Shown in pieces: positions 30,250-52,938 of a stretch of DNA of 64,000 nucleotides (its first letter is position 1; every line of letters begins with the position of its first letter). The notes under the pieces were generated by a model. That model ran no database searches, was not told the DNA's origin, and was given only the letters and a program-made list of their open reading frames with translations. Source of the DNA: a candidate division FCPU426 bacterium (GTDB taxonomy: Bacteria > Oederibacteriota > Muellerivitia > Muellerivitales > Muellerivitaceae); contig CAVRAL010000004.1 of the NCBI GenBank assembly GCA_963719085.1, positions 224,001-288,000 of the forward strand. The letters run 5' to 3'. Position numbers and translations under genes: made by a program.

Positions 30250-30294
30250 TGGTGGGGCATCCTGGATTTGAACCAGGGACCAAGGCATTATGAG
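30250..30294 (-). pseudogene. 3' half of the host CAU tRNA, intron-less, at the left island junction
   Basis: Reverse complement CTCATAATGCCTTGGTCCCTGGTTCAAATCCAGGATGCCCCACCA; tRNA similarity stops at the anticodon loop. Confidence 0.92.
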
Positions 30295-30361
30295 GACCTA
30301 GCTCATGAAATAAAAAAGGCCCGTGTCATACGTAAAACCCTTTCACCGAAAGGAGTTTACC

Positions 30362-31552
30362 TTAAGCAGTGACCTGCTCGTTCTTCTTTTTAGCGGCACC
30401 TGTCATATTCCTGTCATTGAAATCAGTCGCCTTGCGCAAAGCCGCGCGGCGGTCTTCCCTATCCACACGGTCATACTTCCGAAACACCGCATGGGTCTTA
30501 TGGCCTGAAATCGACATAATGACCGAGTCGCTCACTCCCGCTTTTCTCAAGTTCGTAATCGCGCAATGCCTGAGATCGTGAAACTTAAAATTCTCAATCC
30601 CAGCGTTGCGGCACGCCCTTCTAAAAGCGGTCTTCACACTTTCCATACTTTGACCGCGCCAAGTGAAAACACAGGGATTGACCAGCCGTTTTTCCCTATC
30701 CGTTAAATCAGAATACGGCTTGCCCAGTTCCCCATTTGGATATTTTTCAATATCAAAACAGGGTAGCGTCTGGGGAATCTGCTTCAGGAGTTCCTGCATC
30801 TCCTCCATCAGCGGTATTTCCCGTCGTTCCTGCGTCTTGGTGTCCTCCGCTTCGAGGACAATCACCCCATTCTTGAAGTCCACCTGATCCCAACGCAACT
30901 TCAAGATTTCACCACACCGCATGGCCGTCAAATAAGCCAGCCTTACAATGGGCTTCAAATGCCCCGAACAGTTTTCCAAGAGCTTTTGATACTCTTCCGG
31001 GTCCAACGTCCGGTTCCTAAAAAAGGGTTTGAATTTCTTCACCCCCTGAATTGGGTCCCATTCGATCATCCGGTTCAAAACCGCCCGATGCATCAGGGCT
31101 TTCAAAATGGCGATATCTAGGTTCAGCGTGGCGTCTGAAACCACTTTATCAGGCCGGTTTCGGTGTCCCTTTTCCCTTCGGCGGACCAAATAAGCTTCCA
31201 CCAAATCCGAACTAAAACTGTCCAAGGGACGATCACCAAAAAACTCCTTGAACCATTTCATCCGGTAGGTATCCCGAAGGTAGCTTTTCTTTCTGGCCTT
31301 TGAATAAGCCAAATAGGAATCCACCGCCGCGAAAAAACCAACCTTCGGTTTATCCGGAGCCAAATACTTCTGCTCCGCCATATCCCCCATGTTCTGGGCC
31401 AAAATCTTCTTGGCTTGCGACAAAGGAATCTGTCCCAACCGAACCCTTTTTCTTTTCTTCAGTCCCTTTTCCTGGACGAAATAATCCAGAAAATAACCCG
31501 CCTCATCCTTTCTCAGATGTTGCGGCAATCCATGAACATTAGGCTTAGCCAT
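30362..31552 (-). CDS. tyrosine recombinase/integrase (island integrase)
   Basis: AMRCGEI, KTQERR, FHDLRH, SGHKT...KY catalytic set; 3' end 68 bp from the att core. Confidence 0.93.
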   Translation of the reverse strand: MAKPNVHGLPQHLRKDEAGYFLDYFVQEKGLKKRKRVRLGQIPLSQAKKILAQNMGDMAEQKYLAPDKPKVGFFAAVDSYLAYSKARKKSYLRDTYRMKWFKEFFGDRPLDSFSSDLVEAYLVRRREKGHRNRPDKVVSDATLNLDIAILKALMHRAVLNRMIEWDPIQGVKKFKPFFRNRTLDPEEYQKLLENCSGHLKPIVRLAYLTAMRCGEILKLRWDQVDFKNGVIVLEAEDTKTQERREIPLMEEMQELLKQIPQTLPCFDIEKYPNGELGKPYSDLTDREKRLVNPCVFTWRGQSMESVKTAFRRACRNAGIENFKFHDLRHCAITNLRKAGVSDSVIMSISGHKTHAVFRKYDRVDREDRRAALRKATDFNDRNMTGAAKKKNEQVTA

Positions 31553-31955
31553 ACTTCCCCCTAATGTCCCCAGCGAAAACATTCTAGCAGGGGAACATTG
31601 CTTTTGCGAAAGCTATCAAAATTCCGATTTCTACAACACGGGTGTTAATCACCGTGTTAAAAATCAAACAAACTCCCTGGAGTGATTAAAACTACTCGGG
31701 CAAGCCATAAACAAAAACAGCAATTTTTGCGGTATTGTCGGACGAGGGAGAGAAGAAAAAAACGTGCTTATCTACCCGTATTATTTGAAATAGATTTTGA
31801 CGATGGATTGGTGAATTTAACTTGTTGCGGTAGGTAAGACTGCGGAACAGATTGCCAGCACACTCTTTCGTATTTATGCATCCGGTCTGATAGATCAGAG
31901 TGCGCTGGCTCTTAATTTAAAAAGTAATCAAAATATAAAACACAAATCGTTCTAA

Positions 31956-32750
31956 TTAATCAAAATTTGATGAGTCACGTTCCTCTTCAAAGACCCAAAG
32001 TAAAGAAAGCGCCGAAGTAGAATCACCTAATCTAATTGCTTGTTCAGATACCGACACGCTCAACTTATCCGGAAGCTCAGAAAACCAATTATCATAAAAT
32101 ATCTTTTGCATCGATGTTTCTTGCAAGTTATTTTTAATGCAGTTAAAAGCCATCGTCTTCTGTTTTAATTCCCATTGACGTTCTATAAATAATTTAGACT
32201 TATTCTTTTTCCACCAAACAACTTTCAAATCTTTTGAATATACGAGAAAACAATTTTCCTTAGTTGCATCAATAAACCTGAGAGCCGTGGCAGTAAACGA
32301 AGTATCAAAAACACTGGACAACTTTTTGATAGATGCAATTCCCGGTTCTAAAGAACGACATATGGGAAAAAATAGATTTCTTGGCATAAGTACTTCGGCA
32401 GCAAAAATATTCGCTTCCGTTTCAATCGAATCTTCTTCATTAACCGCCATCATATCTTTGTCATTGCAGATACTTGAAAATTTACTATCACGGTGCATTT
32501 TCCAATGACCAAGTTCATGGGCTACGGCGAAACGTTTTCTTCGAGGATCATCATTGGCGTTTATAGTAACAATTCCATTTTCGCCATTTTGAACTAACCT
32601 AGCATCAGCACCTCTAATAACTCCTTCTCGAACAATCAATCCTTGGTCCATTGCGATGTCTTCGATTCTTATATCTTCTGGCGTTTCAAATGAATACCGA
32701 TCAATAAACTTAGATGCTTCAATATGAGCCCGAGTTATATCAGCCTTCAT
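31956..32750 (-). CDS. ImmA/IrrE family metallopeptidase
   Basis: RKRFAVAHELGH (HExxH), ETEANIFAAEVLMP, FDTSFTA. Confidence 0.9.
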   Translation of the reverse strand: MKADITRAHIEASKFIDRYSFETPEDIRIEDIAMDQGLIVREGVIRGADARLVQNGENGIVTINANDDPRRKRFAVAHELGHWKMHRDSKFSSICNDKDMMAVNEEDSIETEANIFAAEVLMPRNLFFPICRSLEPGIASIKKLSSVFDTSFTATALRFIDATKENCFLVYSKDLKVVWWKKNKSKLFIERQWELKQKTMAFNCIKNNLQETSMQKIFYDNWFSELPDKLSVSVSEQAIRLGDSTSALSLLWVFEEERDSSNFD

Positions 32751-33192
32751 TGCTTCGCATCTTTCTTTGATGAATTTCTTCTAATAGCTTTAAATCTTTA
32801 AGAAGAGTAATCAAATCTTCATCGGCAAGATTTTCAAAATTTCTATAGTGCGCAGTTAGTAATTGGCGTCTGTCAGGCGAAATCGTCGAAACAAAATCGA
32901 TAAGCGCTTGTTTTACATTTGAAATATTTATTTCCAGATTCGATTCATTAGAAATAAACGTACTTTCGATTTCTTTTCTTTTGGCTTTTGCGGAATCCAA
33001 TTTTATTCTCGTGCAAATAACGTCGAATTGCCTACGCGCAATTTCCAAACGCGAATCAATATTAAAACCGTCTTCAACAAGCTCTTTACGAACTTCTTTA
33101 ATTGGCATCGATATTATTTCTTCAGGTTTTAGTTGAACAAAATCAAAAATGGATTGAAGCGTTTCTGTGTAATTTCTTTTTGTGTCGCTCAT
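32740..33192 (-). CDS. hypothetical helical protein between the sigma-like and ImmA genes
   Basis: Tightly coupled ORF with GAGGTG RBS; no recognised motif. Confidence 0.7.
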   Translation of the reverse strand: MSDTKRNYTETLQSIFDFVQLKPEEIISMPIKEVRKELVEDGFNIDSRLEIARRQFDVICTRIKLDSAKAKRKEIESTFISNESNLEINISNVKQALIDFVSTISPDRRQLLTAHYRNFENLADEDLITLLKDLKLLEEIHQRKMRSNEG

Positions 33193-33195
33193 GTT

Positions 33196-33822
33196 TCACC
33201 TCTCCGTTTCATTGGCTATAACGTTCAAATAATTTTCATCAATGATTTTCTGAAGTCGGCGATCAATCTGCTTTTTAAAGGCGGCGATTTGCTTATCACT
33301 TTTGCTCATTTGGTTAGCAATTTCAGCCGGTTTCAAATCATCTAAATATAATTCCAAAAACTTTATTAAATCGGCGTCATTTTCAATCACGACAAATAGT
33401 TTTGTCAGAATATCGCCACTAATTTTTTCAATTTCTTGTCGTTGGGTGTCAGTTAGCGGATTTGAAGAAATCTGTTCGAATACGTCTTCAACCTTTGAAT
33501 GAACTTCGCCTTCTTCATCATAAAAAGGTTTTTTAATATGGTTGTTATCTTCGTCTACCTGCAAGTTCCAAACTTCGCTTTTGACCATTTTGAATAAGAC
33601 TGGCAATAAATCAGGATACTTTTCTTGATTCCAATTTCTATCTCCACTACTAACTTTTGCAAAAACGCGAACAACTATATCCTCGCCCTCTTCCCCGTTA
33701 GCGGGTATTCCACCGTACTTCCCTTGCCAAAACCTACGTCTAAGTAAACCGTTGGCATACTTGGATAGCCTGAGATACCAATCCTCGAAATTCGTTTGAA
33801 TTAGATCCATTGGATTAGGCAT
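33196..33822 (-). CDS. ECF sigma factor-like protein
   Basis: Region-2-like EDIVVRVFAKV...LFKMVKSEVWN; C-terminal HTH LKPAEIANQMSKSDKQI. Confidence 0.65.
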   Translation of the reverse strand: MPNPMDLIQTNFEDWYLRLSKYANGLLRRRFWQGKYGGIPANGEEGEDIVVRVFAKVSSGDRNWNQEKYPDLLPVLFKMVKSEVWNLQVDEDNNHIKKPFYDEEGEVHSKVEDVFEQISSNPLTDTQRQEIEKISGDILTKLFVVIENDADLIKFLELYLDDLKPAEIANQMSKSDKQIAAFKKQIDRRLQKIIDENYLNVIANETER

Positions 33823-34342: not shown

Positions 34343-34352
34343 GGATATAAAA

Positions 34353-34787: not shown

Positions 34788-34794
34788 TCCCGGG

Positions 34795-34896: not shown

Positions 34897-36063
34897 ATGG
34901 ATTTTTCTAGAATTGGGCGCGGAGTAATTTATTGGCCTGTTGGTAGCGGTGACTCTTCCACAATCATCGTTGACGAAAACACTATCATACAAGTGGATAT
35001 TAACAAGCGAGCTGACTCAGAAGAAGAAAATACCCTTTATACAAATATTGTTGAAAAGCTTAGAACTTCATTGCGAAAAAAGGATGCAAAGCCCTATCTC
35101 GATGTGTTCGTATTAACTCATCCAGACCAAGATCATTGTAAAGGATTCGAAGAACTTCTTAAAAATGTGACCATAGGAGAGTTATGGTTCACACCGCGAG
35201 TTTTCAAAGAATTCAAAACCGATTTATGCGATGACGCAAAAGCGTTTCACACAGAAGCAGAACGTCGAATCAAAAAAATCATCCAAGAAAATGGCAACGT
35301 CACTTCAGGTAACCGCGTTAAATTATTTGGTTATGACGAGATAATTGGTAAAGGTGGTGATTACGAAGGTTTTCCAAAAGAGCTTTTGATCATACCTGGA
35401 ACATCTTTTAACTCGGTCGATGGGGTTTATCGAACTGAAGTTGACTTTTTTGCGCATAGCCCATTCAAAGATGATATGGACGGAGAACGAAATCACACCA
35501 GCCTTTCATTTCAAACCGTACTTAAAAAAGCCAATAAAGAACTAAAATTACTTCACTTCGGCGATTTGGCACACTTGCAATTAAAAAAGATTTTTGAAAA
35601 AACGAGCGATTCAGACAATCTTGGGTGGCACGTTTTGCTTGCTCCCCACCATTGTTCAAAATCAGCTATGTATCACTCCGAAGACGCGGATAGCGAAGAA
35701 ACTCTTCAAGCCGATTTCATTACCGGAATAACTAGCACCAAAGAGAAAGTTGCTTATATTGTTTCAAGTAGTGAAATTATCCCAGCAGACAATGACAAAG
35801 GCGATAATCCACCTCATGCCAAAGCGAAAAATCGTTATGTAGAAGTTGTAAACGAAAATTTCTTTTGCACTCATGAACACCCTGATGAAAAAAATCCAGA
35901 GCCAATAATCTTCAGATTGAACGATGACGGGAACATCGTTCCACCACAGCCGACAAAAAAAGAAAAAAAGGACCAAGGAAAATCTTTGGGAGCGAGTATC
36001 TTGACCGCCAGAGGGACAACTAATCAACCTCCCAAAAACCCAAGGCAATTTGGTCATGCTTGA
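34897..36063 (+). CDS. ComEC-like metallo-beta-lactamase-fold hydrolase with low-complexity tail
   Basis: PVGSGDS, LTHPDQDHCKG, HFGD, APHHCS; tail ...PPKNPRQFGHA. Confidence 0.85.
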   Translation: MDFSRIGRGVIYWPVGSGDSSTIIVDENTIIQVDINKRADSEEENTLYTNIVEKLRTSLRKKDAKPYLDVFVLTHPDQDHCKGFEELLKNVTIGELWFTPRVFKEFKTDLCDDAKAFHTEAERRIKKIIQENGNVTSGNRVKLFGYDEIIGKGGDYEGFPKELLIIPGTSFNSVDGVYRTEVDFFAHSPFKDDMDGERNHTSLSFQTVLKKANKELKLLHFGDLAHLQLKKIFEKTSDSDNLGWHVLLAPHHCSKSAMYHSEDADSEETLQADFITGITSTKEKVAYIVSSSEIIPADNDKGDNPPHAKAKNRYVEVVNENFFCTHEHPDEKNPEPIIFRLNDDGNIVPPQPTKKEKKDQGKSLGASILTARGTTNQPPKNPRQFGHA

Positions 36064-38266
36064 AAAACAACAGACAGCAGTTCAAGAACTAAGAGATATA
36101 GAATCAACATCTAATAATGGCATTGAGCTAGTAACATCGCCGCATTTCGATGTATCGACACAAACAACAGTTATGGAAATCTCTATCGATTGTTCAAGCT
36201 TTGAGATGCGCGGCAATAATCATTTGTCACTTTCTCAACGTGAACGAGTAGTGATATTTTTAGACAAGAATTATCCCTTTTCCATACCGATTGTTGCAGT
36301 TTTTCATAATAGATTCATTACTTCCGCACACGTTCAGTGGATGCGGGAATTTGAAAAATATAAGGCTGTACTACCCACAATTTGCCTATATCAATCACCA
36401 TCCAATGATTGGGAGCCAAGTGAAGGGATGTTTGGGCTTATGGATAGATTAGTAAAATGGTTTGCTCGCGGTGCCGTGGCAGAGCTTGATCTTCCCGGAG
36501 ACCCGATTCATGCTCCCCTTGCCTATTACAGTCAATCCAATCCTATTCGTATAGTTCTGAGCAAAAACGCTCCAACGGTTGGTAGAGAAAGTTGGATTGG
36601 ATATTTTAAATATAAACGCATTAAAGAAAACATTTACGAAGTCGTTGATTTCATTCAAGACACTGATATTGATGACAGTTGTGGCTTAGGTTGTGCTTTT
36701 TTATTACCTCACGAAACATTTTTTGAATTCCCCAATCAATTAGACCATTTAATAAAGCTCATAACAAACCACGGAAACATTAATCAATCCACGATTGCTT
36801 CTAATATGGCAAAAGTCCAAAATCGCATTGGAAAAAATTTTCCTTTATTTGTTATGGTAGGCTCACCGATGCGAGGAATTGCGGGCGAAGCAGAAAGAAA
36901 ACTGCATCTAGCCATCGGTGATATAAGTGCACAGGCCATAACAGACAAAACTGACTTAAACAGTATTAATTGGTGCAAATCTTACGAAAACCGTGAAGAA
37001 ATAATTATCAAAAGAGATAACTACTCAAATATCACTTCATTAAGAGATAAAAATATTTTACTTATCGGGGTTGGAGGTCTGGGAGGATATGCTGCCGAAT
37101 CAATCGTTCGTAGTGGAGCTAAAAAAATAACGGTAGTAGATTTCGGCGAAGTGCATCCAGGACTGTTATCAAGACAAAATTACACTCACGAAGATATTGG
37201 AAAACCAAAAGTCGAAGCAATCCGCGATAGAATTACCAAAGTAAATCCAAACTGCGAAGTAACAATTATCAATAACGATTTTCTGACGGTTGCCGATTCC
37301 ATTAAATTTGAAGATTTTGATTTCATCATTAATCTAAGCGCCTCAAATCCAATTAATCTATATTTTGAACAACTTTCGAAAACTAAAAGATTTCCAACTG
37401 TTGCAGTGGGACTTATAAGTGCCGATGCCAAAGTTTTGCTTGGAACAATATCCGACAAAACTTATATCGGCGGTCAAAAGCAATTACTTCGTAACTTTCA
37501 TATTCGAATGCTTTCTGATAGAGAATTAGAAGAAGTTACCAAGAAAATATGGCCTGAACCAGGCAATGAAAATAACTTTCAGCCAGAACCCGGTTGCTCT
37601 GAACCGACTTTTACCGGTTCTGCAACCGACATGCAATTCCTTTCGTCGTTTTTCATTAATCAAATTTCAGAATACTTCGGACAACAAAACACCACATCGG
37701 GCCGCTTATTTGGCATACATCAACCAACCAACGGAATTACAAAGACATGGAGTTTTTTCCCCGAATGTTATCAACAATTCGATATATCCGACAACGATGC
37801 TAAAGTTAGAATTTCATCAAAATCATTAGCACAATTAAAAAGCCATGTCGCAAAAGCACAAAAGTTACGTGGTTCATCTTGTGAAACAGGCGGCTTAATG
37901 TACGGAAGAGTTGAAAATGCTATCGATTTAATTTGGGTTGACGAATGTACCGATGCGCCAAGTAATAGTGAATTTTCCGCAAGTGGTTTTCATTGCGGGA
38001 CAAATGGAGTCGAAGAATTATCAAAAAAAATATCTAAAGCCACTAATGGAGAGAGTTGTTTCATTGGATATTGGCATACACATCCTAACGGGCCAACAAA
38101 GCCCAGTTTTACAGATTTACTTGCGGCATTTGAAACAGTTTCGACTTCCGGAGAAAATCTAAGACAAGTATTATTCATGATTATTAATCCGGACAATTTT
38201 TCATTTGATTTTTATTTCTTCGATCACGTTAACGGTCAATTAAGGATAGTCATTGTCAGAGAATAA
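36056..38266 (+). CDS. E2-E1(ThiF)-JAB fusion (Cap2-Cap3-like)
   Basis: E2 YPFSIP...AHV...ICLY; E1 GVGGLGG, VVDFG, SRQ, GKPKV, PEPGCSEPTF; JAB ETGG...WHTHPNGPTKPSFTD; ATG at 36056 overlaps the MBL stop. Confidence 0.88.
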   Translation: MLEKQQTAVQELRDIESTSNNGIELVTSPHFDVSTQTTVMEISIDCSSFEMRGNNHLSLSQRERVVIFLDKNYPFSIPIVAVFHNRFITSAHVQWMREFEKYKAVLPTICLYQSPSNDWEPSEGMFGLMDRLVKWFARGAVAELDLPGDPIHAPLAYYSQSNPIRIVLSKNAPTVGRESWIGYFKYKRIKENIYEVVDFIQDTDIDDSCGLGCAFLLPHETFFEFPNQLDHLIKLITNHGNINQSTIASNMAKVQNRIGKNFPLFVMVGSPMRGIAGEAERKLHLAIGDISAQAITDKTDLNSINWCKSYENREEIIIKRDNYSNITSLRDKNILLIGVGGLGGYAAESIVRSGAKKITVVDFGEVHPGLLSRQNYTHEDIGKPKVEAIRDRITKVNPNCEVTIINNDFLTVADSIKFEDFDFIINLSASNPINLYFEQLSKTKRFPTVAVGLISADAKVLLGTISDKTYIGGQKQLLRNFHIRMLSDRELEEVTKKIWPEPGNENNFQPEPGCSEPTFTGSATDMQFLSSFFINQISEYFGQQNTTSGRLFGIHQPTNGITKTWSFFPECYQQFDISDNDAKVRISSKSLAQLKSHVAKAQKLRGSSCETGGLMYGRVENAIDLIWVDECTDAPSNSEFSASGFHCGTNGVEELSKKISKATNGESCFIGYWHTHPNGPTKPSFTDLLAAFETVSTSGENLRQVLFMIINPDNFSFDFYFFDHVNGQLRIVIVRE

Positions 38267-39365
38267 AAGAATCGGACTATGTCTTTCCGGTGGCGGCTTT
38301 CGAGCGGTTGCTTTTCATTTGGGGTGCCTCCAAGGCCTTAATAACCTTGGATTGCTTAAACACATTCGATCAATATCCTGTGTTTCTGGCGGCTCAATCA
38401 TAGGCACGCTCTACACTCTGTACGGTCAAACAGACTTTTCAGAATTTGAAAAAAGAACCAAAAGAATGTTACAAACTAGGCTTGATCTTAAAATTGCCTA
38501 TAAACATATTTCTTCAGGGCGATTCTTATTCGATCTTTGTCAGTTGGGCACGTGTCTTCCAATACGATTTATTTCTCAAAAACTAAACTTCAATTTTGAA
38601 TTTCAAAGAAAATATAGTCTGACCGAATCACTCGTTAAGATATTTGATAAAGAATTTGATAAAAAACTTCTATCAAATCTTCAAAACTCTCCCATTGAAC
38701 TTATTATTAACGGGATTGAATTAAGAACATTTAGTGCAATTCGTTTCGGAGCTAAAAAAGCTGTTTGTTGGAGATTCGGCGAGATCGACCCTTCTCTAAT
38801 TTCGTTGGGAGAAGCCGTTGCTGTTAGTGCGGCTTATCCCCTGCTTTTACCTGCCTTAGAGCGAAAATACAGTTTTTCAAAAAAGGGAATAACCTACAAG
38901 GAAACTGTTTCTTTATCTGATGGCGGAACATATGACAATCTTGGACTCACACCATTTATAAGCACAAATGACTTCGCAGATAGTTATCCCCGACCCGAAT
39001 TAGACTACATTATTGCATGCGACGCCGCTCACGGACAGCTTCATCCACAAACATTGCCACACACACCCATTTCAAGATTACACGCCGCATTCAAATCGTT
39101 GATGAGTCGTTCTAGGCACTCTAACTTTAAAACTCTTCATAAGCTTAAAGAAGATGGTGACATAAAAGGTTTTTCATTAGCTTATTTAGGTCAACAAGAT
39201 GAAAGAATCCCAATTCCACCTATCGATTTAGTTCAGAAAAATCGTGTGGACTCATATCCAACAGATTTTAAAAAAATGAGTGACGACAATTTTGAAGTTC
39301 TAACTAAACGCGGCAGACAACTCACCGAATCTTTAACTACGCACTATTTACCAGAATTATTTTGA
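38253..39365 (+). CDS. patatin-like phospholipase
   Basis: LSGGGFRA, VSGGS nucleophile, SAAYP, DGGTYDN. Confidence 0.9.
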   Translation: MSENKRIGLCLSGGGFRAVAFHLGCLQGLNNLGLLKHIRSISCVSGGSIIGTLYTLYGQTDFSEFEKRTKRMLQTRLDLKIAYKHISSGRFLFDLCQLGTCLPIRFISQKLNFNFEFQRKYSLTESLVKIFDKEFDKKLLSNLQNSPIELIINGIELRTFSAIRFGAKKAVCWRFGEIDPSLISLGEAVAVSAAYPLLLPALERKYSFSKKGITYKETVSLSDGGTYDNLGLTPFISTNDFADSYPRPELDYIIACDAAHGQLHPQTLPHTPISRLHAAFKSLMSRSRHSNFKTLHKLKEDGDIKGFSLAYLGQQDERIPIPPIDLVQKNRVDSYPTDFKKMSDDNFEVLTKRGRQLTESLTTHYLPELF

Positions 39366-39379
39366 ACAATAAAAAATTG

Positions 39380-42300: not shown

Positions 42301-44164
42301 AAACCTGCCAAACAACTTTATATTTTTTATTATCTTTTAACGCTTCTTCTGGCGGTGTGTTGGCAGGAACACCTATCGGAAGAATGATGTAACCATACTT
42401 TTTACCTTCGGCTTTTCTCATAACCCGTCCGACAGATTGGACTACGTCCACAACCGAATTACGGGGATTGAGAAACATAACTGCATCAAGAGCTGGAACA
42501 TCTACCCCTTCGGCCAGACAACGAGCATTACTAAGAATACGACAAACATCACCTTCCGAAGCTGTATCAGCTTTAAGCCAATCGAGTCTTTCATTGCGTT
42601 TCAGAGCATTAAAAGTGCCGTCAACGTGCTCAACCTGACAGGCTAGGAAATTGTCATCGTCTTCATGCTGTTTACGATATTGGTCAACAATATCGCCAAA
42701 GAGATTTGTAATTCTTTGAGAATCTTTAATTGATCGACAAAAAGCAACTGCCCGATGCATGTGACCAAGGTCATTGGCGATACCATCTATTTCAGAACCT
42801 TTAACAAAACGCTTACTCAAACCATTCCAGCAACCGGTTATCTTTACGGCATCTTCAAGATTAAGTTCGCTATTACTATCAGCCAACATTTTTTGCAAAG
42901 AATTATTAACGTAACTCTCATCAACAGCCAGAACCATGACTTTGTAATCCGAAAGCAAGTCTTTACGAACAGCTTCAGAAAAATCCAAACGATAAAACTC
43001 TTTCCCATAAAGCGATTCGTCATCCATTGAACAGATTTCCGCATTTGCCTCTTCGGCCTTGGTTCTTGATTCATCACTGTAAATACGCGGAGTGGCCGTC
43101 ATATAAAGGCGTTTACCGCCTTTTATGAATTTCGGATCGTGAACTTTAACGAAATGGGATTCATCATCCCCTTCCAAAGTTACGCCTGTCGTTCTATGCG
43201 CTTCGTCGCAAATAATTAGATCAAAATCAGGCGCGCCTAACTTTTGGGCCTCTGAAATAACTTTAATAGATTGGTAGGTACTGAAAATAACCGTTAATTG
43301 CTTTTTACCGCCAAAAGCTTTTAATTGTGCCGCAAGTTTCTTTGCGTTAGTTGTTGCTGGTAATGGAAGATCGTGAGCTTGTATATCTTCACTCTCATTT
43401 TTCCTACCCACCTTAACATCTGAGCAAACCGCAAAATTATGAAGGGAAGCTTCTGCTTCCGCAGTCCACTCTCTTAGCGTTTGAGAAACAAGTGAGATTG
43501 AAGGCGCCAAAAAAAGAATAAATCCTTTCTCTCCCGCCATCTTTTCAGCGATTTTAAGAGAAGTGAAAGTTTTGCCCGTTCCACAAGCCATGATTAGTTT
43601 GCCGCGATCAGCTTTTTTAAATCCTTCAAGTGCATTGGAAAGAGCTTCTTTTTGATGATCTCTAAGTCTCTTTTTCTCTTTTAGTTTTATATTTTGAGGG
43701 CGGCTAAGGCTGAATTGGTTCCAATCAATCGGACTGTTAGCGAGGTCTTGAACCCTTAAGCGGGTAACCGGTGTCCGTTGGTTTTCCAAAGCTTCTTCAG
43801 CATGATTACTCCACTTGTCAGTAGTGGAAACGATCATTCGAGTGGTAAACGGCTCTTTACCTGAAGTAGTAAAAAATGAATCTATATCAGCTTTTTGGAG
43901 ATTGTAGTTAGGGTCATAAAATTTGCACTGAATGGCGCAAAATTCACCCGTATAGCGATCTTTAGCTACAAGGTCGATGCCAGTATCAGGCTTCTTTCCA
44001 CGGCCAGGCCATTCCGACCAAAGCCAAACGTCACTAAATTGATCTTTGTATATTGGGTCAGTGACAAGATAGTTGGCAATTAAACGTTCAAACTTATCAC
44101 CCAAGTCACGATTAGAGGTTGCCGCTTGTCTGAATTCTTCCAGCAACGTATGTATTGTTGTCAT
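39380..44164 (-). CDS. type ISP restriction-modification enzyme (LlaGI/LlaBIII-like)
   Basis: Mrr-like GIDLV...AIQCK; helicase MACGTGKT, DEAHR, QSVGRVMRK; methyltransferase DPFTGTG and NPPY; C-terminal TRD with YRPF. Confidence 0.93.
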   Translation of the reverse strand: MTTIHTLLEEFRQAATSNRDLGDKFERLIANYLVTDPIYKDQFSDVWLWSEWPGRGKKPDTGIDLVAKDRYTGEFCAIQCKFYDPNYNLQKADIDSFFTTSGKEPFTTRMIVSTTDKWSNHAEEALENQRTPVTRLRVQDLANSPIDWNQFSLSRPQNIKLKEKKRLRDHQKEALSNALEGFKKADRGKLIMACGTGKTFTSLKIAEKMAGEKGFILFLAPSISLVSQTLREWTAEAEASLHNFAVCSDVKVGRKNESEDIQAHDLPLPATTNAKKLAAQLKAFGGKKQLTVIFSTYQSIKVISEAQKLGAPDFDLIICDEAHRTTGVTLEGDDESHFVKVHDPKFIKGGKRLYMTATPRIYSDESRTKAEEANAEICSMDDESLYGKEFYRLDFSEAVRKDLLSDYKVMVLAVDESYVNNSLQKMLADSNSELNLEDAVKITGCWNGLSKRFVKGSEIDGIANDLGHMHRAVAFCRSIKDSQRITNLFGDIVDQYRKQHEDDDNFLACQVEHVDGTFNALKRNERLDWLKADTASEGDVCRILSNARCLAEGVDVPALDAVMFLNPRNSVVDVVQSVGRVMRKAEGKKYGYIILPIGVPANTPPEEALKDNKKYKVVWQVLQALRAHDDRFNATVNQIELNKSRPDQIQVIGVGGSDKAEEGQTSGAHETQAPYGQSAFKFPDIEEWRNAIYAKIVLKCGDRRYWESWAKDVAEIAERHKTRIEGLLKGAKPKHKAAFDEFLKGLQDNLNPSIDKEEAVEMLSQHLITKPVFDALFENYKFTQQNPVSIAMQKMLDLLEGASLEKETAKLEKFYESVKERASGVDNAKGRQRIIVELYDKFFRSAFPRMAERLGIVYTPVEVVDFIVKSADEALKQEFGVGLTDKGVNILDPFTGTGTFIVRLLQNGLIKPEDLKRKFKEELHANEIVLLAYYIAAINVEEAYHGLAGGKYEPFDGIVLTDTFQMSEPKSPWDEKYFPENNERVTRQKKKDIRVIVGNPPYSALQASENDGNKNLKYPSLDEKIRQTYAAFSTATLKNSLYDSYIRAFRWAGDRIGEKGVICYVSNGSFIDGNAMDGFRKCLTDDFTSIYCFNLRGNARTSGEQRRKEKGSVFGEGTRTSIAITLLIKNPEKKGTCQLFYHDIGDYLTREQKLKIINEFESSKAIPWTKIVPNSSHDWINHRDPTFEKFIPLGDKDDEKNISIFNSYSMGVKTNRDAWVYNFNKNELIANVKRMIRFYNEQTEDYKTATKSKNISIEGFVENDPKKISWTRELKWDVEKGIVHKFQKESIVKSLYRPFCKQWIYFNRSFNNTVYQMPKYFPDINTENLVICVTGRGATKEFSALISNALPDLEMISKGQCFPLRYNKKSESLENSENLGFQFHEENGISKAISDISVKLFREKYSDKKIGEEDIFYYVYGILHSFEYKTRFSSDLGKMIPRIPFAQDFWIFSKAGRDLAKWHLHYEDIDPYPLEVSKDQFDLNSKEFYKVRKMIFGKLDGQVDKTTIVYNSHITLKDIPLRAYDYVVNGRPALEWIMERYQVSIESDSQITNDPNDWSDDPQYILNLVKRIVTVSLETMKIVNGLPPLNENKR

Positions 44165-46097: not shown

Positions 46098-46568
46098 TCA
46101 ATTGTCTAAAGACCCTTCGTGTTCGGTGTATTCCTCCGTCGTCCATTTATGCCCGCAAAGCGGGTCTTTACATTCCCAAAAGTGGCAGATCGTTTCATTA
46201 ACCATTTTGACCTGCTCCAATCGACTGACTTCATACCCCTGATTTGGGGTAAAAATTTCATTGGAATAGAGAACCCCATGGTCAATCCGCTCCACCGTTT
46301 CGAGATTTTCCCATTGTTCGATAACCTCGCCTTTAACGAATTGCCTTTTCCAGAACCGCTTGCACTGAGGACATCGGCTTTGGAATGCTTTCACCAAGCA
46401 CCAAACCGCCGGCTTTAAGGTGATGCAGTACAGCGGATAAAAAACAAACCAGAAGGCCTTTAGGACAAAACAGACCGCGCCTAAAGCCATCATCAGAAGA
46501 AACACGGCCAATACCACGGCGAGCCCAAATAAAAACAGATAAGCCAAAAAGCTAAATAAGGTATGCAT
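46098..46568 (-). CDS. membrane protein with split Zn-ribbon
   Basis: Hydrophobic N-terminus; CPQC...CKDPLC. Confidence 0.6.
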   Translation of the reverse strand: MHTLFSFLAYLFLFGLAVVLAVFLLMMALGAVCFVLKAFWFVFYPLYCITLKPAVWCLVKAFQSRCPQCKRFWKRQFVKGEVIEQWENLETVERIDHGVLYSNEIFTPNQGYEVSRLEQVKMVNETICHFWECKDPLCGHKWTTEEYTEHEGSLDN

Positions 46569-46717
46569 AGTTCCCCCTTTGCCGGGCTAATAACATGCTG
46601 AAAAAATCCCCCGAACGGATTTTTTCAGCCGACAACATCTACGGTAACCCCACGATTCCTGCTGAATCTTTGGGGTGACAGGCTGCTTTGTAGCTCTATT
46701 ACTTTTTTAGCAACCTG

Positions 46718-47194
46718 CTAAAGCAGCCCGGCTTGTCTAAAAGAAAAGTGACCTTCATGAGTAACGATTAAATGGTCATGAACCGCTATGCCCAAAGCCC
46801 TTGAGGCGGTCACGATCTGACGGGTTAACTGCTTATCGCCTTCACTGGGTTCCAAGCTTCCGGCGGGGTGGTTGTGGGAAAATATCAGCCCCGTGGCGTT
46901 TAATTCCAAAGCCAATTTCAAAATCTCTCTGGGATAAACCGCCGTATGGTCTACCGTGCCTTCGGTATTCAAAACCACATCCAAAACATGATTACGATGG
47001 TCTAGGTACATGGTCAAAAAAGCTTCCTTGGCCCTGCCGCCAATGTACTTACGGAAATATTCGGCGGCGTTTTGGGGCTCGCTAACGACGGGGCCTCTTT
47101 TGTAATCCATTCGTGCTTCGGCCCATGAGGTAACGGGAATGGTCGGCGGGGGAAGGGCATCCACACTCAATTTCAGTTCAAGTTGCTTTTTCAT
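46718..47194 (-). CDS. RadC-like JAB/MPN domain protein
   Basis: GTVDHTAVYPRE, HNHPAG...PSEGD, VHDHLIV; start MKKQLEL after GGAGG. Confidence 0.9.
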   Translation of the reverse strand: MKKQLELKLSVDALPPPTIPVTSWAEARMDYKRGPVVSEPQNAAEYFRKYIGGRAKEAFLTMYLDHRNHVLDVVLNTEGTVDHTAVYPREILKLALELNATGLIFSHNHPAGSLEPSEGDKQLTRQIVTASRALGIAVHDHLIVTHEGHFSFRQAGLL

Positions 47195-47901
47195 ATAACG
47201 GCCTCCTTTTTTCATCTGGTTTTTCTGAAGGTTTTTTGCCTTTGAAAAACCGCCTTCCGCCTCCCCCCTTGCCCAAAAGAGGGGGGAGGAAGAAGGCCAT
47301 AGAGGAGGTTTGAGCGTTCGCGCTGACAGGACCAAAAACGAATGGGATACCAAACGAAGGGAGGCCATCCCTTAACTTTTGTGACAGCCGCCCTTTGGCT
47401 GGCGCAAAAGTTGCCTTGCAAGGGTGGCCGTGAAGGGATAAACAGGGTCTAGGGGCAGGGCGAACGATCAAAACTTTCCATCGTTCTAAGCCCTAAAACG
47501 GATGACCATCTACGGGGTTTGACTTGAGTTGGGCTTAATACAGCTGTGGGGACATCTACTTGGTGGTTAATGACTGATCACCTTAACCACTGATACTTTG
47601 AACTTCTCTTGAACCGACTTAAAACGACTGACTATTCACAAGCTTCACAATCTAAGATTCCTTCATCTTTAACTTCTCTTATACCTAATCACCTTCTTTC
47701 CTCAGGCTTATCAATTCGGCTTTCTTCACCTCCCAGTTCTTTTTCTTCTCTTCTTCATCCTTCCACTTCCCCGCTAATTGCCCAGCCTACCTCTTACCTC
47801 ACCACCCACTACTTCTTTACCCATCCCCCATATCCTTCTCTATGCCTTTGTGTTCCATGATTCTTCTCATCTCGTCTTTGAGGGTTTTTCCATGCGGAGA
47901 G

Positions 47902-47950: not shown

Positions 47951-48162
47951 ATCGGAGTGTGGAAAAACCCGCCTTAAAAAGCCAAAAACGCCAAAATCAT
48001 AGTTCCATGGCACGGAACTACTTGTGGCACAACTTGGTTCGGTATGAGGGGGATGGGAAACATGGTTTGAGGTGTTTTGCGAAGGCGCTTCGATGCTATT
48101 TTCGACATTGCTTCCCCGGACTTATCGGGTTCTGGGTATCAACATCTTCGGAGGACAAACAA

Positions 48163-48450
48163 ATGGACGACAAGCTCTTTAAGCTTCCCTATCACGGCAA
48201 TAAGGTATTCAAACGGTCTGATCTATTCCCGGATAACCTGCCGGAATTCATGACCCTGAAAGCCATCGAAAAGGTCTATTCCATCAAACCCCAAACCATG
48301 CGCGATCTCTTAAGCCGACACCGGACAACCGGCATCCCCGCCCCGTTCATTTACCTACCCGGCTGTAAGCCCCTGCTGATTAAGCGGACTTCCTTTGAGG
48401 ACTGGCTATTGGCCCAAAGCAATGTGATTAAGGTTAAAAAGGAGGGCTGA
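48163..48450 (+). CDS. excisionase/MerR-type HTH small DNA-binding protein
   Basis: FMTLKAIEKVYSIKPQTMRD...GIPAP...LLIKRTSFEDWL; GGAGG RBS; directly upstream of an integrase. Confidence 0.6.
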   Translation: MDDKLFKLPYHGNKVFKRSDLFPDNLPEFMTLKAIEKVYSIKPQTMRDLLSRHRTTGIPAPFIYLPGCKPLLIKRTSFEDWLLAQSNVIKVKKEG

Positions 48451-48484
48451 CCTGGGATATTCAAAAATAAGGAGTGTTTAACTA

Positions 48485-49663
48485 ATGGCTTTTTTAAAGA
48501 TGAAGGTCAAACAATGCGAGGATAACCGTGAAGAGCTGAGAGCCTATGCCTACGATTCTTACGTGCTGAATGGGCAACAAAAGCAATTTTCTGTCCATAG
48601 ATTCGGCTTATGTCGCGATAAAGCCGATGCGAATGAACGTTTCAAAAAATGGCTAAAAACTTACAAAGAAGCCAAAGCCCAAAAGCGGCTATTACCTAAG
48701 ACCCCAACTTTGCAGGAATTCGCACCTTTATACCTTGAACGAAATGAACAGTTAACCGGCAACAAACACCAAAGCAAAGCCTCGTTGAAACACCTCATTA
48801 GACACCTTGGGAAACGCCCTTTAGATCAAATCACAAGGCTGGTCGTTTTGAACTATCGGGATTCCAGGACAAGTGAACCCATTAAAACAAAAGGCAAAAA
48901 TAAGGGAAAATTTCCGAGCCCCAAAACCATTAACCACGAACTTTCAACCCTATCCAGCTTGGTACGAAAAGCTCTCGAACTTGAACAGATCAAAGAACAT
49001 CCCTTTTTAAAATACGGCATCAGCCTTAAACGAAACTTCTTCTTAAAAGTAGTTCAAACCCCAAAACCCGCCCTAACCCGCCAAGAGTTTATGTCCCTCA
49101 TGGAAAGCACTACTGAAGAACGTTCGAAGGTAATTACCTTGCTCTATGCCGTAACGGGAATGCGCCAAGGCGAACTGATAAACTTACGGTTGACCGACAT
49201 TGATTTAGACCAAAACCGAATTACCTTTAGAGCACCGAAGACAGGTGACTTTAGGACGTTGGCAATCCCTAGCGTCTTAAAACCCCTCTTTGAAAAGCTT
49301 CTCACTCACCTGCCCTTAAGAACAGGCTGGCAGAAACGGAAACCCTATCAACGAGAACATATCCTTTGTAACCAAAAGGGTGAACAACAGAAGACGCCGG
49401 GGAAGGATTTTATGACTCAAGCCGCTCAAAGGGCCGGTATTAAAAAGCACGTCACGCCCCACATTTTAAGACATTCGTTTTGCTCCCATGCGGCCAACCA
49501 TGTCAATATTTGGGAGCTTAAAGAACTAATGGGACATAAAAACATCACCACCACGGAGATTTACGTTAAAACCTTCAAAACGCCTGATGTAGAGACAGCC
49601 AACAAAATTACAGGAAGTTTGGGGATTGATGCCAACTTTTTAAACTCGGTCTTATCGAATTAG
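48485..49663 (+). CDS. second tyrosine recombinase/integrase
   Basis: TGMRQGEL, PKTG, PHILRHSF, MGHKNITTTEIY. Confidence 0.92.
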   Translation: MAFLKMKVKQCEDNREELRAYAYDSYVLNGQQKQFSVHRFGLCRDKADANERFKKWLKTYKEAKAQKRLLPKTPTLQEFAPLYLERNEQLTGNKHQSKASLKHLIRHLGKRPLDQITRLVVLNYRDSRTSEPIKTKGKNKGKFPSPKTINHELSTLSSLVRKALELEQIKEHPFLKYGISLKRNFFLKVVQTPKPALTRQEFMSLMESTTEERSKVITLLYAVTGMRQGELINLRLTDIDLDQNRITFRAPKTGDFRTLAIPSVLKPLFEKLLTHLPLRTGWQKRKPYQREHILCNQKGEQQKTPGKDFMTQAAQRAGIKKHVTPHILRHSFCSHAANHVNIWELKELMGHKNITTTEIYVKTFKTPDVETANKITGSLGIDANFLNSVLSN

Positions 49664-49689
49664 GGAAACCCGATAAAGAGACAAGCCTT

Positions 49690-49899
49690 TCATTGGAGCT
49701 TTCTTCTTTCCCTTGCATGAAGCTTCGCATGTTCACTTCTGCTCATATTGACGAGATTGCTTTCTCTGAAGTTTTTTGGATTCCCATCTATATGATGCGT
49801 GACTTGACCTTTTTTGGGTTGGGCTACAGTTCTATGAACCAATTTTCCGCTATCATTCCAGACAGGATAACCTTTTGGATTGTAATGAAACCTTCCCAT
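49690..49899 (-). CDS. small HNH endonuclease domain protein
   Basis: VHRTVA...HHIDGNPKNFRESNL...SEHAKLH. Confidence 0.8.
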   Translation of the reverse strand: MGRFHYNPKGYPVWNDSGKLVHRTVAQPKKGQVTHHIDGNPKNFRESNLVNMSRSEHAKLHARERRKLQ

Positions 49900-49927
49900 A
49901 GCTTACTCCTTTCAATGTGAACTTCGC

Positions 49928-50275
49928 TTACGCGCTCAACCTTACGTGAAAAAGCCAGACATCGACGATCATGTGAAACTCATATTCTTCCAGAGGCATC
50001 CCGTGTCTGAGTTTGGTGGCGATTCGACGGCCAAAATCGGCTTGCTCTCCCTTTGCCTCCGGTGAGGGCTCAACTATCTCGAGGGCAAATTTCAACAAAT
50101 CCCCGGTCAACCGTTCATTACTAATCAGCTTCCTCTTGATTTGGCCACAGCGCCAGTTTCGGAGTTTGCGGGCCTCCTCTTTTTCAGGATTCCGGAACGC
50201 GCGGGCGAAACAATCTTCCATGAACAAATCTTCCGGCCAAACCAATTCAAACGGCTTCTTTGGCTCTTTTTTCAT
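49928..50275 (-). CDS. hypothetical protein
   Basis: ORF with GGGGGAG RBS; no recognised motif. Confidence 0.55.
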   Translation of the reverse strand: MKKEPKKPFELVWPEDLFMEDCFARAFRNPEKEEARKLRNWRCGQIKRKLISNERLTGDLLKFALEIVEPSPEAKGEQADFGRRIATKLRHGMPLEEYEFHMIVDVWLFHVRLSA

Positions 50276-51214: not shown

Positions 51215-51583
51215 TTACAAAATATTTTTAAAATCTTTTTTTAAGAAGGGCGATGCTTTTCCGCCACGTCTTAGCTTTTCTAACAATGCGTCAGAAATAT
51301 CATCTTCCTGCGTCGCTATATGCATTTGAATAGCTTCTTCAATTTTTTGGATATCCGAAAGTATGGCTTCCCTATAGTTAACCGCAGATTCTTTCCTGAT
51401 AAAAGGATGCTCACCGGAACGTAATACACACGAATGATCTCTGTCTTCGTCATTCTCTGTGATGTTTACAAGCAAAACCTTGCCGTTATCGTCGGGTTCG
51501 GTAATTGCAAAATACAAGTGAGGTGGATTTTGCGGCCAACTTGGGTTTTTAAGGAGAACAGCGCTTTTGATTTGAATTGGCAT
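51215..51583 (-). CDS. putative toxin (PemK/MazF-like fold) paired with a Panacea antitoxin
   Basis: PHLYF...LLVNIT...GEHPFIRKESAVNY; starts 12 bp after the DUF4065 gene. Confidence 0.6.
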   Translation of the reverse strand: MPIQIKSAVLLKNPSWPQNPPHLYFAITEPDDNGKVLLVNITENDEDRDHSCVLRSGEHPFIRKESAVNYREAILSDIQKIEEAIQMHIATQEDDISDALLEKLRRGGKASPFLKKDFKNIL

Positions 51584-51595
51584 GGTGAATGCCGT

Positions 51596-52141
51596 TTATG
51601 AGCCGAAAACTGTACTGGCAAAATGAAAGTCCGAAGTCTCTTGCGCAATCTTTTTAATCTCTTTCGGAGCTTTCCCAATAGTTGTCAATAATGCTTCAAA
51701 CGCAATAGGAAACGAAGAGCCGTTCGGGTCTTCCCATTCTTTTGTGTGAGTATGGCAATAGTCGATCATTTGCCCGAAGGAATGCTTTTTAAACTTTTTA
51801 TCGATTTCATTCAAAATCTTTTCTTCGGCTTCGGAAAGTTCGCCGTCGCCTGGGTCTTGTATCAAAGCCACTTCGAAGCCCTGTTTCTTGATGGAAATCA
51901 TCCAATATTTATTCTCGGATTTCCCTTTCAGCCAGTCATAAACTTCGCTCAAAACAGGACCGTTATCCATCGATACATAACTTCCACCAATAATGGGACG
52001 ATTCCATTTCTTTAAAGCTTCACGATCAGAAAGATACATAAGCTTAATCATTTTTGTGTAATTAAGACGCTTGCCATTACTTTTAATAAAGTAGGCTGCC
52101 ACCTGCGTGGCTTTGAGTGGATTTAATTGAAAAGCGATCAT
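51596..52141 (-). CDS. Panacea (DUF4065/SocA-like) antitoxin
   Basis: KMIKLMYLSDR, MDNGPVLSEVYD, YCH...EW. Confidence 0.88.
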   Translation of the reverse strand: MIAFQLNPLKATQVAAYFIKSNGKRLNYTKMIKLMYLSDREALKKWNRPIIGGSYVSMDNGPVLSEVYDWLKGKSENKYWMISIKKQGFEVALIQDPGDGELSEAEEKILNEIDKKFKKHSFGQMIDYCHTHTKEWEDPNGSSFPIAFEALLTTIGKAPKEIKKIAQETSDFHFASTVFGS

Positions 52142-52243
52142 GGGTTACTCCTGCGACTTAGTATATCTATCTCTAACGATAGACACTTAAATTTTCAATA
52201 GGACAGCCGAATTACGGTTATTTTTAACTAAAAAATCAAATAG

Positions 52244-52540
52244 TGGTGGGGCATCCTGGATTCGAACCAGGGACCAAGGCATTCAGGTTTGTGTCGTTTA
52301 CACGACTCCCCGGACTATCTCTTCACCCAAACATCAGGGTGTGGGACGCTTCTTCGCGGTCATTAAGGGGTCTTAACCCCTCCGCTAGTCTCTGCACCTT
52401 CCTCCGGTGTACCGGAAGCTTGGCTCAGGATTGCCTCTGTGAGGTTTCCCTGACTTCATCCCAATTCATCCAACAGCTTTCGCCATTGGTGCACAGCTTT
52501 TGCTATGAGTGCCCTGCTCTAACCGCTGAGCTAATGCCCC
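52244..52540 (-). tRNA. CAU tRNA, probably tRNA-Ile2, intron-containing (exons 52540-52505 and 52283-52244)
   Basis: Spliced 76 nt: GGGGCATTAGCTCAGCGGTTAGAGCAGGGCACTCAT^AATGCCTTGGTCCCTGGTTCGAATCCAGGATGCCCCACCA; full cloverleaf, no initiator features, resembles E. coli ileX; elongator Met not strictly excluded. Confidence 0.92.
52284..52504 (-). ncRNA. group I self-splicing intron (221 nt, no ORF)
   Basis: P1 CAU|AGC-AAAA-GCU-GUG with U.G at the 5' splice site; P4 UCAGG/CCUGA; P7 GAGACUA/AUAGUC; P3 UGGGAUG/CGUCCCA; P9 GUCGU-GUAA-ACGAC; terminal G. Confidence 0.92.
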
Positions 52541-52552
52541 TCTAAATCGTCC

Positions 52553-52567
52553 GTCATTTTACGTTAG
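52553..52567 (-). promoter_or_regulatory. -10 region of the island tRNA promoter
   Basis: CTAACGTAAAATGAC, identical to 53083-53097. Confidence 0.7.
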
Positions 52568-52898
52568 ATTCACCAAAACACAACAAATCAACGAATGACA
52601 TGGATATGACACTAACCCATTTTTTGATCGTGGCACTTTTGATGGTCTGCTCTCAAATCCAAGTTTTTCCTTAGATCAGGGCAGTAAAAGTGTCCTGCTC
52701 TCGCCGTGTCTTATTCGTGTCATTCGTAGTGCTGTTTTACCGCCCTTTACCGCCACTGACTGTCTTTGACCATGCTTTCAAAAAAAGACCCTTGCCCGCA
52801 ACCTCTCTAAAAGCGTTACGGGCAAAGGCATTCAAAACGTGCTGGGGACAGTTAAATTTTTACTGCACGGACTTTCCGACTCCAAAAAGCCTTGAAAA

Positions 52899-52938
52899 CA
52901 TTATGAGTGCCCTGCTCTAACCGCTGAGCTAATGCCCC
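52899..52938 (-). pseudogene. 5' half of the host CAU tRNA, intron-less, at the right island junction
   Basis: GGGGCATTAGCTCAGCGGTTAGAGCAGGGCACTCATAATG followed by non-tRNA sequence with no T-arm or acceptor. Confidence 0.92.

Follow-up and report, generated by a model that had tools for sequence, protein, structure and literature searches.

How can an island insert itself into the anticodon loop of its host's single tRNA-Ile2 gene and restore that gene at neither end, and why is the spare tRNA-Ile2 gene that it carries interrupted by a group I intron inside the very bases at which the insertion took place? These questions are raised by an island of 22.6 kb in a candidate division FCPU426 bacterium, which lies in the stretch of 64,000 nucleotides analysed here (contig CAVRAL010000004.1 of assembly GCA_963719085.1, positions 224,001 to 288,000; called the window below, with coordinates counted from its first letter) and which disrupts the only tRNA-Ile2(CAU) gene of the genome at its anticodon loop. 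The island had been singled out in a preliminary description made from the letters of the window without database searches. The answer favoured here, which is on balance probable, is that the island is a non-phage element with tRNA-dependent integration, in which the intron makes the spare copy a poorer but still usable target, is helpful rather than required, and rides on the element. That the element complements the gene which its insertion breaks is highly probable. What is new here is a non-phage tRNA-dependent island with a spare gene interrupted inside the crossover core.

Split host gene and boundaries of the island

The host gene was found only as two halves on the minus strand, a 3' half of 45 nt (tRNA positions 32-76) at attR and an orphan 5' half of 40 nt (tRNA positions 1-40) at attL, with their cores 22,613 bp apart (Table 1), and the joined halves form a 76-nt cloverleaf, which confirmed both the coordinates of the preliminary description and its claim that the halves can be joined into a complete tRNA. 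The missing half is rebuilt at neither attL nor attR, as had also been stated there. The core had been taken as the overlap of the two halves, which measures 9 nt in the window, but only the 7 nt of the anticodon loop, CTCATAA, are common to the relatives when nine attL and five attR junctions are set beside the two of the window. The G+C content of the island is 0.406, against 0.546 and 0.543 in the flanking 10 kb. Misassembly had been named as a possible objection, and a contig of the independent run X1, which may be the source sample, spans attL without any difference from the window.

The P' arm of the element, 358 bp from the orphan half to the replacement tRNA, is 75-87% conserved after the orphan half in the related genomes G018, G020, G008 and G004, and transcription entering it from the host promoter would be terminated at a hairpin within it (-28.4 kcal/mol, z -4.35). 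The TGACA-type repeats of the P and P' arms are candidate arm-type integrase sites. The integrase gene ends 68 bp from the tRNA 3' half, and homologues of 64-73% identity lie beside a tRNA-Ile2 3' half in G018, G020, G004, G028 and G022. Among 27 members of the family, the five full-length Ile2 integrases form one clade (support 100/100), the members of which are always found beside the tRNA-Ile2 3' half, and the sibling integrases mostly adjoin Arg, Thr, Leu, Ser, Asn and Asp tRNA genes; a specificity of the clade for tRNA-Ile2 is suggested by this pattern.

The replacement gene and its intron

The second tRNA-Ile2 gene, described earlier as complete, interrupted within the core by a group I intron and different from the host gene at one T-loop base, was confirmed in each of these respects. 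Its exons of 36 and 40 nt are separated by a 221-nt intron after position 36, which is the fifth base of the 7-nt crossover core, and they differ from the host halves solely at position 57 in the T-loop (75/76 identical). The intron gives the only RF00028 match in the genome and its length leaves no room for an endonuclease gene. It has a U at -1 paired with G in P1, a terminal G and an insertion point after loop position 5, as the class Ile2.5Ug demands. When introns were compared, P1 with its U-G pair was invariant (11/11) and two-sided changes were observed in 19 of 72 predicted pairs, so that the structure is conserved through compensatory changes. The genome contains the 15-mer of the candidate promoter of the replacement at two places only, 52553 and, in the host tRNA promoter, 53083, and a consensus promoter scan flags only the host copy.

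No further copy of either tRNA half is present in the genome (99% complete, 5 contigs), in which three CAU tRNAs were counted, namely the split and replaced gene and two others on contig C1. One of the two has an unpaired first position and three G-C pairs, which we take to be initiator features, and the other, of elongator type, has tRNA-Trp as its best, and uninformative, match in E. coli. The intact tRNA-Ile2 orthologue of the same-genus genome G001 has as its best E. coli match an annotated tRNA-Ile with CAT anticodon (84%), and its global alignment score to E. coli tRNA-Ile(CAT) is 62, against 46 and 48 for the two other CAU tRNAs. The count of other CAU tRNAs proposed in the preliminary description thus returned two, neither of them closest to the annotated Ile2, and no second intact tRNA-Ile2. 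Since no other tRNA-Ile2 was found, tilS is present, no tRNA with UAU anticodon was called in the genome, and ATA is used (in 579 of 962 open reading frames (ORFs) of at least 350 aa), the island copy is the only candidate reader of AUA, and tRNA-Ile2 is presumably essential. In genomes of this kind tRNA-Ile2 escapes the standard tRNA callers. The elongator-type CAU tRNA lies at G000:C1:57699-57775 (G000 being the genome of the window), directly upstream of tilS; should this tRNA prove to be the Ile2, the gene that is split would be that of the only elongator tRNA-Met, and the case for complementation would be unaffected.

Recurrence in the order and empty sites

In the 32 genomes of the host's order that were surveyed, G000 counted among them, the orphan 5' half followed by the intron-bearing copy was observed in nine (G000, G002, G004, G005, G008, G018, G019, G020 and G028), an intact intron-less tRNA-Ile2 gene in 15, including G001, and an intron-bearing gene at the host locus without an orphan half in two (G014 and G031). 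Six were left unclassified: G011, G015, G021 and G029 gave no tRNA-Ile2 match, G022 has only attR and the integrase, and G006 has two unlinked halves. The same layout, which the preliminary description proposed to look for among homologues of the integrase, therefore recurs in the order, and in G018 both element ends stand whole on one contig. In G002, G005 and G019 (98-99% complete) the 3' half with its intron-less junction has been lost, and the arm and the intron copy are kept as the only gene, as expected if the copy is needed. The complementation proposed in the preliminary description is accordingly upheld by the lack of another tRNA-Ile2, the presence of tilS, the use of AUA codons and the retention of the copy in decayed elements.

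The intron is present in every copy found behind a P' arm in the family of the window, that is in 9/9 genomes and in eight metagenome contigs with both parts, some of which are the same DNA as the surveyed genomes. A metagenome scan gave 54 loci. The gene is intact at 33 of them, orphan halves and intron copies number 15 each (one contig counted twice), and among these loci no window-type arm was found upstream of an intact gene. No intron-bearing attR was found in the 32 genomes, and neither an intron-less internal copy nor a stacked full attL of the window's family was seen in those genomes and the metagenome loci. The intact intron-less tRNA expected downstream of sulP in island-free relatives was found in locus L388 and in a contig of run X2. 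The X2 contig agrees with 52899-53237 at all 339 nt, among them the end of sulP, and continues into an intact intron-less gene followed by downstream DNA that differs from that of the window.

A convergent system in Polynucleobacter

A scan of GTDB genomes for intron-bearing CAU tRNAs returned at least 121 loci, 80 of them with long flanks, counts which represent a sample. Among the matches listed, a full orphan 5' half was found upstream in six of the 80 long-flank loci, namely three in Polynucleobacter, two on other Burkholderiales-type contigs, and that of G028. The empty site of Polynucleobacter (G203) has rpoD followed by an intron-less tRNA-Ile2 gene, and G122 shows the orphan half, an arm and the intron copy, with an attR that has no intron at a distance of 32 kb. 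The Polynucleobacter recombinase-like gene has no significant likeness to the window integrase (best E 1.8), and the Polynucleobacter introns fall on a tree branch separate from the introns of the window's family; because the integrases are unrelated and the introns stand on separate branches, the design arose at least twice.

The orphan half with an intron copy was found in 58 of 241 Polynucleobacter genomes, and the orphan half with an intron-less copy behind a closely similar arm in eight. Element DNA is joined directly to core, intron and exon 2 in three of the 241 genomes (G100, G101 and G223), with three more sharing one degenerate event, and two orphan halves are stacked in G100; since the intron copy is split in these three genomes, it can serve as a target. 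The tandem arrays of 26 Polynucleobacter genomes contain 33 rebuilt attP junctions, which implies that the circle junction predicted in the preliminary description exists in Polynucleobacter. For the island of the window itself no circle junction was seen in the contigs of runs X1-X4, which could not be compared with both island ends together. Later arrivals are thus much commoner at the 33 rebuilt junctions than in the intron copy, where three to six cases were counted, an excess that fits a partial shield. Thirty of the tandem junctions were examined: the copy that follows has the intron in 24, in none is it intron-less, and six are cut off or have no copy.

Two side observations concern the structure of these loci. 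At core position 7 of an intron-bearing attR of Polynucleobacter sp. AP-Kaivos-20-H2 (L277:14305) stands the base of attP, and in G100 that of the intron, a difference compatible with an overlap of 7 bp in which a mismatch is tolerated and can be resolved to either base. Several Polynucleobacter cassettes (L310:18840, L309:5882, L307:7562 and L306:8200) end in the 3' part of the intron and exon 2, without the 5' part, and the intron-bearing copy seems, from these junctions, to serve as an anchor for a second class of insertion or for homologous exchange.

Role of the intron

The mechanism that we favour would begin with a crossover by the tyrosine integrase in the 7-nt anticodon loop of the single tRNA-Ile2 gene, which would leave two dead halves, and a whole tRNA-Ile2 with its own promoter, about 360 bp inside attL, would let the integrant still read AUA. 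Given its near-identical exons, this copy would, if it had no intron, offer another attB at a distance of about 400 bp from the attP core of the element. The intron alters the seventh base of the core and swaps the right-hand flank, which would make the copy a poorer, though not a forbidden, target, and self-splicing would restore the tRNA. The intron would then be helpful but not required, later arrivals would not be excluded, and the element would carry the intron between hosts. Decay of the element, or a collapse of orphan half and exon 1 over their 36-nt repeats, could leave the intron behind at the host locus. The spare tRNA would further make a partial deletion of the island lethal and a clean excision harmless.

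Several findings weigh against this reading. In Polynucleobacter, G120 holds a full-length intron-less element, with attL, an integrase that is 96% identical and an attR 38 kb away; the persistence of intron-less replacements, that of G120 included, means that the intron is not required. Split rates are alike, with 1/9 intron-less copies and 3/63 intron copies split (Fisher p 0.42; the 63 comprise 60 intact matches and the three split copies), and the comparison of the routes taken by later arrivals is not significant either (p 0.11-0.18). The rebuilt attP junctions could have arisen by homologous recombination over the shared arm and intron, and a single capture, inherited since, could account for the complete association with the intron in the window's family. 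The genomes G031 and G050, in which intron-bearing genes stand without any element features found, are more distant, and hosts could be sources of the intron rather than recipients. All counter-examples to a block by the intron, moreover, come from an integrase family other than that of the window.

The account that survives best beside the favoured one, possible but rather unlikely, holds that complementation is real and the intron a neutral hitchhiker without a role in recombination, captured together with the tRNA from a host or a phage. Introns of tRNA-Ile2 at host loci are indeed common, with few full orphan halves among the scanned loci given above; phage tRNA clusters carry related introns, one of them beside the Polynucleobacter group; G031 and G050 have the intron without element features; and the persistence of intron-less elements and the similar split rates point the same way. 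Yet two unrelated integrase families both carry intron copies although the genes of many hosts are intron-less (15/32 in the order, and G203), and the tandem junctions that could be followed to a copy all lead to one with the intron. A leaky masking role of the intron is on this evidence somewhat more likely than pure hitchhiking, and the sequences compared here are suggestive of a partial shield.

A strict lock was the proposal of the preliminary description, by which the intron makes the copy unusable as an attB, is needed against self-integration or internal deletion, and excludes competitors for the site. It agrees with the position of the intron inside the 7-nt core, with the usually strongly deleterious effect of overlap mismatches reported in the available part of one study (PMC10865867), and with the lack, in the window's family, of intron-less internal copies, intron-bearing attR sites and stacked full attL sites. 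Against it stand the tolerance of mismatches at secondary sites, reported in the same partial source, the split intron copies of G100, G101 and G223 with the stacked orphan halves of G100, the eight Polynucleobacter genomes with intron-less replacements and the 26 with tandem arrays. The claim of a strict att block fails on the intron-less replacements and split intron copies of Polynucleobacter and is neither contradicted nor shown for the integrase of the window; the claim of exclusion fails on the tandem arrays, which are common in Polynucleobacter, and because of which competitors are not excluded there. Strict locking and competitor exclusion are unlikely, and the lock as a whole is improbable.

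It is most improbable that the intron gene is the host's own and the island an ordinary tRNA-restoring one, with the 5' half a stray duplicate or an assembly error. Intron-bearing genes do occur at the host locus in G014 and G031, but the 3' half carries an intron-less junction; what separates the orphan half from the intron copy is a conserved arm of the element, found also at the sibling tRNA-Asp island; the run X1 contig spans attL unchanged; the run X2 contig has the same upstream DNA with an intact intron-less gene; and the same-genus G001 is intact and intron-less, so that recurrence and empty alleles already refute this explanation. That the island tRNA mainly supplies AUA decoding for AT-rich cargo is likewise hardly credible, for although ATA is more frequent in 15 island genes than in 10 host genes (14.9 and 2.0 per 1000 codons), integration destroys the host copy, the gene number stays at one, and the copy persists in decayed elements.

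The favoured reading, with the intron as a leaky mask, can be tested directly in Polynucleobacter, where cultured strains are available and nearly the same element exists naturally in versions with and without the intron.

Relation to known systems

Complementation by a whole tRNA is known already. In the tRNA-dependent lysogeny of actinobacteriophages, a whole phage tRNA of the same isotype complements and the core is about 10 bp (Guerrero-Bustamante and Hatfull 2024, PMC10865867; comparisons with this paper refer to the part of its text that was available), and the Gordonia phages OneUp and Mollymur are tRNA-dependent at tRNA-Ile2-CAT, with cores of 10 and 9 bp (PMC10865867). The island shares with these phages a tyrosine integrase, a short core over a tRNA gene, junctions without reconstruction and a whole tRNA of the same isotype, and it differs from them in having no virion, packaging or transfer genes by Pfam and PHROGs (PMC10865867). 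Its replacement exons are 75/76 identical to the host gene, whereas the tRNA of phage Fionnbharth is not closely related to that of its host, and the island tRNA adjoins attP and holds a group I intron, whereas in the available text the word 'intron' occurs only in the title of a reference (PMC10865867). The element thus works like tRNA-dependent lysogeny but is not a phage, and the known range of tRNA-dependent integration grows beyond actinobacteriophages to take in, in two phyla, defence islands that are not phages. The claim that the arrangement had not been described stood in part: whole-tRNA complementation has been published, at least for phages in the available part of the source (PMC10865867), and no published description of the layout with an intron and a replacement tRNA was found in the literature, the coverage of which left out most subscription papers.

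The intron class Ile2.5Ug was defined by an insertion after the fifth loop base, a U at -1 in a P1 wobble pair, a terminal G and a length of about 220 nt (Williams 2020, doi 10.1101/2020.01.27.920355), and the island intron shares all of these traits (doi 10.1101/2020.01.27.920355). In the text of Williams 2020 these introns are assigned neither to mobile elements nor to replacement genes, whereas the intron gene observed here is mostly element-borne and the host alleles are without the intron. A comparable idea exists for the archaea, where Randau and Soll proposed that tRNA introns block viral integration by disrupting attB (as summarised in the accessible portion of PMC4090602). In both cases an intron near the anticodon disrupts attB; the archaeal proposal concerns protein-spliced introns that protect the host, whereas the island would have a self-splicing intron in the element's own copy as a leaky shield (PMC4090602, from the same portion).

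Sibling islands at tRNA-Asn and tRNA-Asp in this genome resemble the island of the window in their integrase family (53-57%), the anticodon-loop crossover, the integrase beside attR and a related P' arm; they differ in being canonical, with an intact gene and a 45-bp duplicate left, whereas the window's island restores neither junction. A second clade of Ile2-targeting integrases (48% identity) leaves a whole gene on the integrase side, which the clade of the window does not. For islands such as the one described here, the left boundary would be set in the wrong place by island finders that look for an intact gene and a long duplicate of its 3' end.

Two further observations were made on the second Ile2 clade. 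In L409 and L387 (one metagenome contig), as also in L383 and L404, one end has an orphan 5' half and, 9.5 kb from it, the integrase side has a complete tRNA without intron, and the arm type of this clade precedes an intron copy in L376 and G005.

Origin and spread of the intron

The persistence and patchiness of endonuclease-free group I introns in the tRNA genes of bacteria is an old question; the prototype of the tRNA-Ile2 group I introns of bacteria is reportedly that of Azoarcus BH72. Elements such as those described here provide a concrete vehicle and a testable benefit for such introns, and the camouflage reading, if true, would give them both a benefit and a route of spread. In its general form, which is held tentatively as something that may or may not prove right, unrelated elements repeatedly recruited a self-splicing intron as camouflage of the spare tRNA, which lowers self-targeting, and the elements spread endonuclease-free introns between genera into host chromosomes.

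The host-locus intron of G014 groups with the element-borne introns of G004, G008, L376 and L400 (98/98), and this nesting fits the suggestion of the preliminary description that the intron spreads without a homing endonuclease. The intron gene of G014, a genome only 63% complete, is preceded by host-type hairpin DNA, and a degenerate 3' half lies elsewhere in the genome; the simplest reading of these sequences is that a collapse between the orphan half and exon 1 over the 36-nt repeats left the intron in the host gene, a route that may apply more generally.

Viral contigs gave 25 matches to the intron and exon pattern, mostly in tRNA clusters, and neither a second copy of the 5' half nor an integrase homologue was found in these 25; the short attL/attP motif had no match in the viral contigs. 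The stretch from attL to the tRNA had no match among PLSDB plasmids and only three partial matches to the intron core among INPHARED phages. Long introns with HNH matches beside or inside them were observed in phage tRNA genes of the viral contigs L089, L095, L103 and L108, and could be endonuclease-bearing relatives of the Ile2 introns. The contig L133, labelled Akkermansia, carries hrcA-, NAD kinase- and recN-like genes (read from translations) together with a tRNA and intron nearest to those of Limnohabitans (99/93), and is probably mislabelled or mis-binned.

Cargo and other features

No virion, packaging or transfer families, including capsid, terminase, tail and lysis functions, were found in the 19 island ORFs by Pfam and PHROGs, and the element is a non-phage integrative defence island, the features of which are listed in Table 1.

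Table 1. Features of the island and of its host flanks, in window coordinates
Feature	Position	Strand	Evidence or remark
ArsR-type regulator of the host (AHSA1 genes farther out); downstream flank of the split tRNA	29738..30073	-	Pfam HTH_20/HTH_5
attR, host tRNA-Ile2 3' half	30250..30294	-	core 30286-30294; anticodon loop 30288-30294
P arm of the element	30295..30420	-	short TGACA-type repeats also present in P' arm (shared 7-8-mers)
Cognate tyrosine integrase, 396 aa	30362..31552	-	PF00589, phrog_1
Cargo regulators: CapP/IrrE-like peptidase, CapH-like ORF, ECF-sigma-like ORF	31956..33822	-	PADLOC capP E 3e-56, capH weak; NCBIfam sigma70-ECF weak
Defence cargo: MBL-fold enzyme, E2-E1-JAB fusion, patatin (6A-MBL-like)	34897..39365	+	NF058524 302 bits (cut-off 220); NF058523 282 bits, below cut-off 320; Pfam
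Type ISP restriction-modification enzyme	39380..44164	-	Pfam Type_ISP_C and ISP_coupler
570-aa ORF	44291-46003	-	no match in Pfam, PADLOC, NCBIfam, PHROGs
Backbone pair: 156-aa membrane ORF and RadC-like JAB protein	46098..47368	-	64% and 81% identical in G018 element
Passenger block: second tyrosine recombinase (48485-49663, +) and 69-aa HNH ORF	47959..50275	.	unmatched in G018 element
SocA/Panacea antitoxin and adjacent 122-aa ORF, directly downstream of replacement tRNA	51215..52141	-	PF13274; 81% and 74% identical in G018
Replacement tRNA-Ile2(CAU)	52244..52540	-	exon 1 52505-52540, exon 2 52244-52283; ARAGORN, introns allowed
Group I intron, 221 nt, class Ile2.5Ug	52284..52504	-	RF00028 68.2 bits (cut-off 50)
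P' arm	52541..52898	-	terminator-like hairpin and U-run near 52779-52829
Candidate own promoter of replacement	52553..52567	-	-10 box 52556-52561; 15-mer identical to that of host tRNA promoter
attL, orphan host tRNA-Ile2 5' half	52899..52938	-	core 52899-52907
Host tRNA promoter-like site	53083..53114	-	sigma-70-type match at 9/12 positions; chance level in shuffles 1.5 such sites
Host sulP, upstream flank	53122..54357	-	PF00916

The second tyrosine recombinase is a passenger, since it is missing from the G018 element and is skipped in a related element of run X4, which lacks 48095-50723; it was considered as the cognate enzyme and rejected for its absence from these related elements, and on the same ground the small HNH ORF was not accepted as a conserved partner in homing. 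The CapP/CapH-like regulators stand upstream of the 6A-MBL-like operon on the opposite strand, and no CD-NTase was found among the scanned island ORFs. A 36-nt inverted repeat at 47882-47970, conserved in the G018 element, is a candidate cis-acting mobilisation site. The 43 bp at 50652-50694 have a counterpart of 98% identity in G018, situated after 3' ends of tRNA-Ile2 (L021:2776-2818 and 1599-1638), and may be an arm that belongs to an element which targets 3' ends and is connected with the second recombinase.

In the flanks, the ArsR-AHSA1 block likewise lies downstream of the intact intron-less tRNA in the same-genus G001, and REP-like GGGG/CCCC hairpins occupy 52960-53075 between the host promoter and the tRNA, with similar repeats upstream of the gene in G005, G008, G014 and G028. 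The P side of attR in G028 (L030), G022 (L045) and G004 (L027) partly resembles tRNA positions 22-31, possibly as a decayed 5' half or as a core-type binding site. Contigs begin or end at or near the core in three genomes (G028:C236/C290, G003:C53/C72 and G006:C222/C192), and in G028 and G003 the distance to the point of divergence is 55 bases; the pattern looks like a branching of the assembly graph into empty and occupied alleles.

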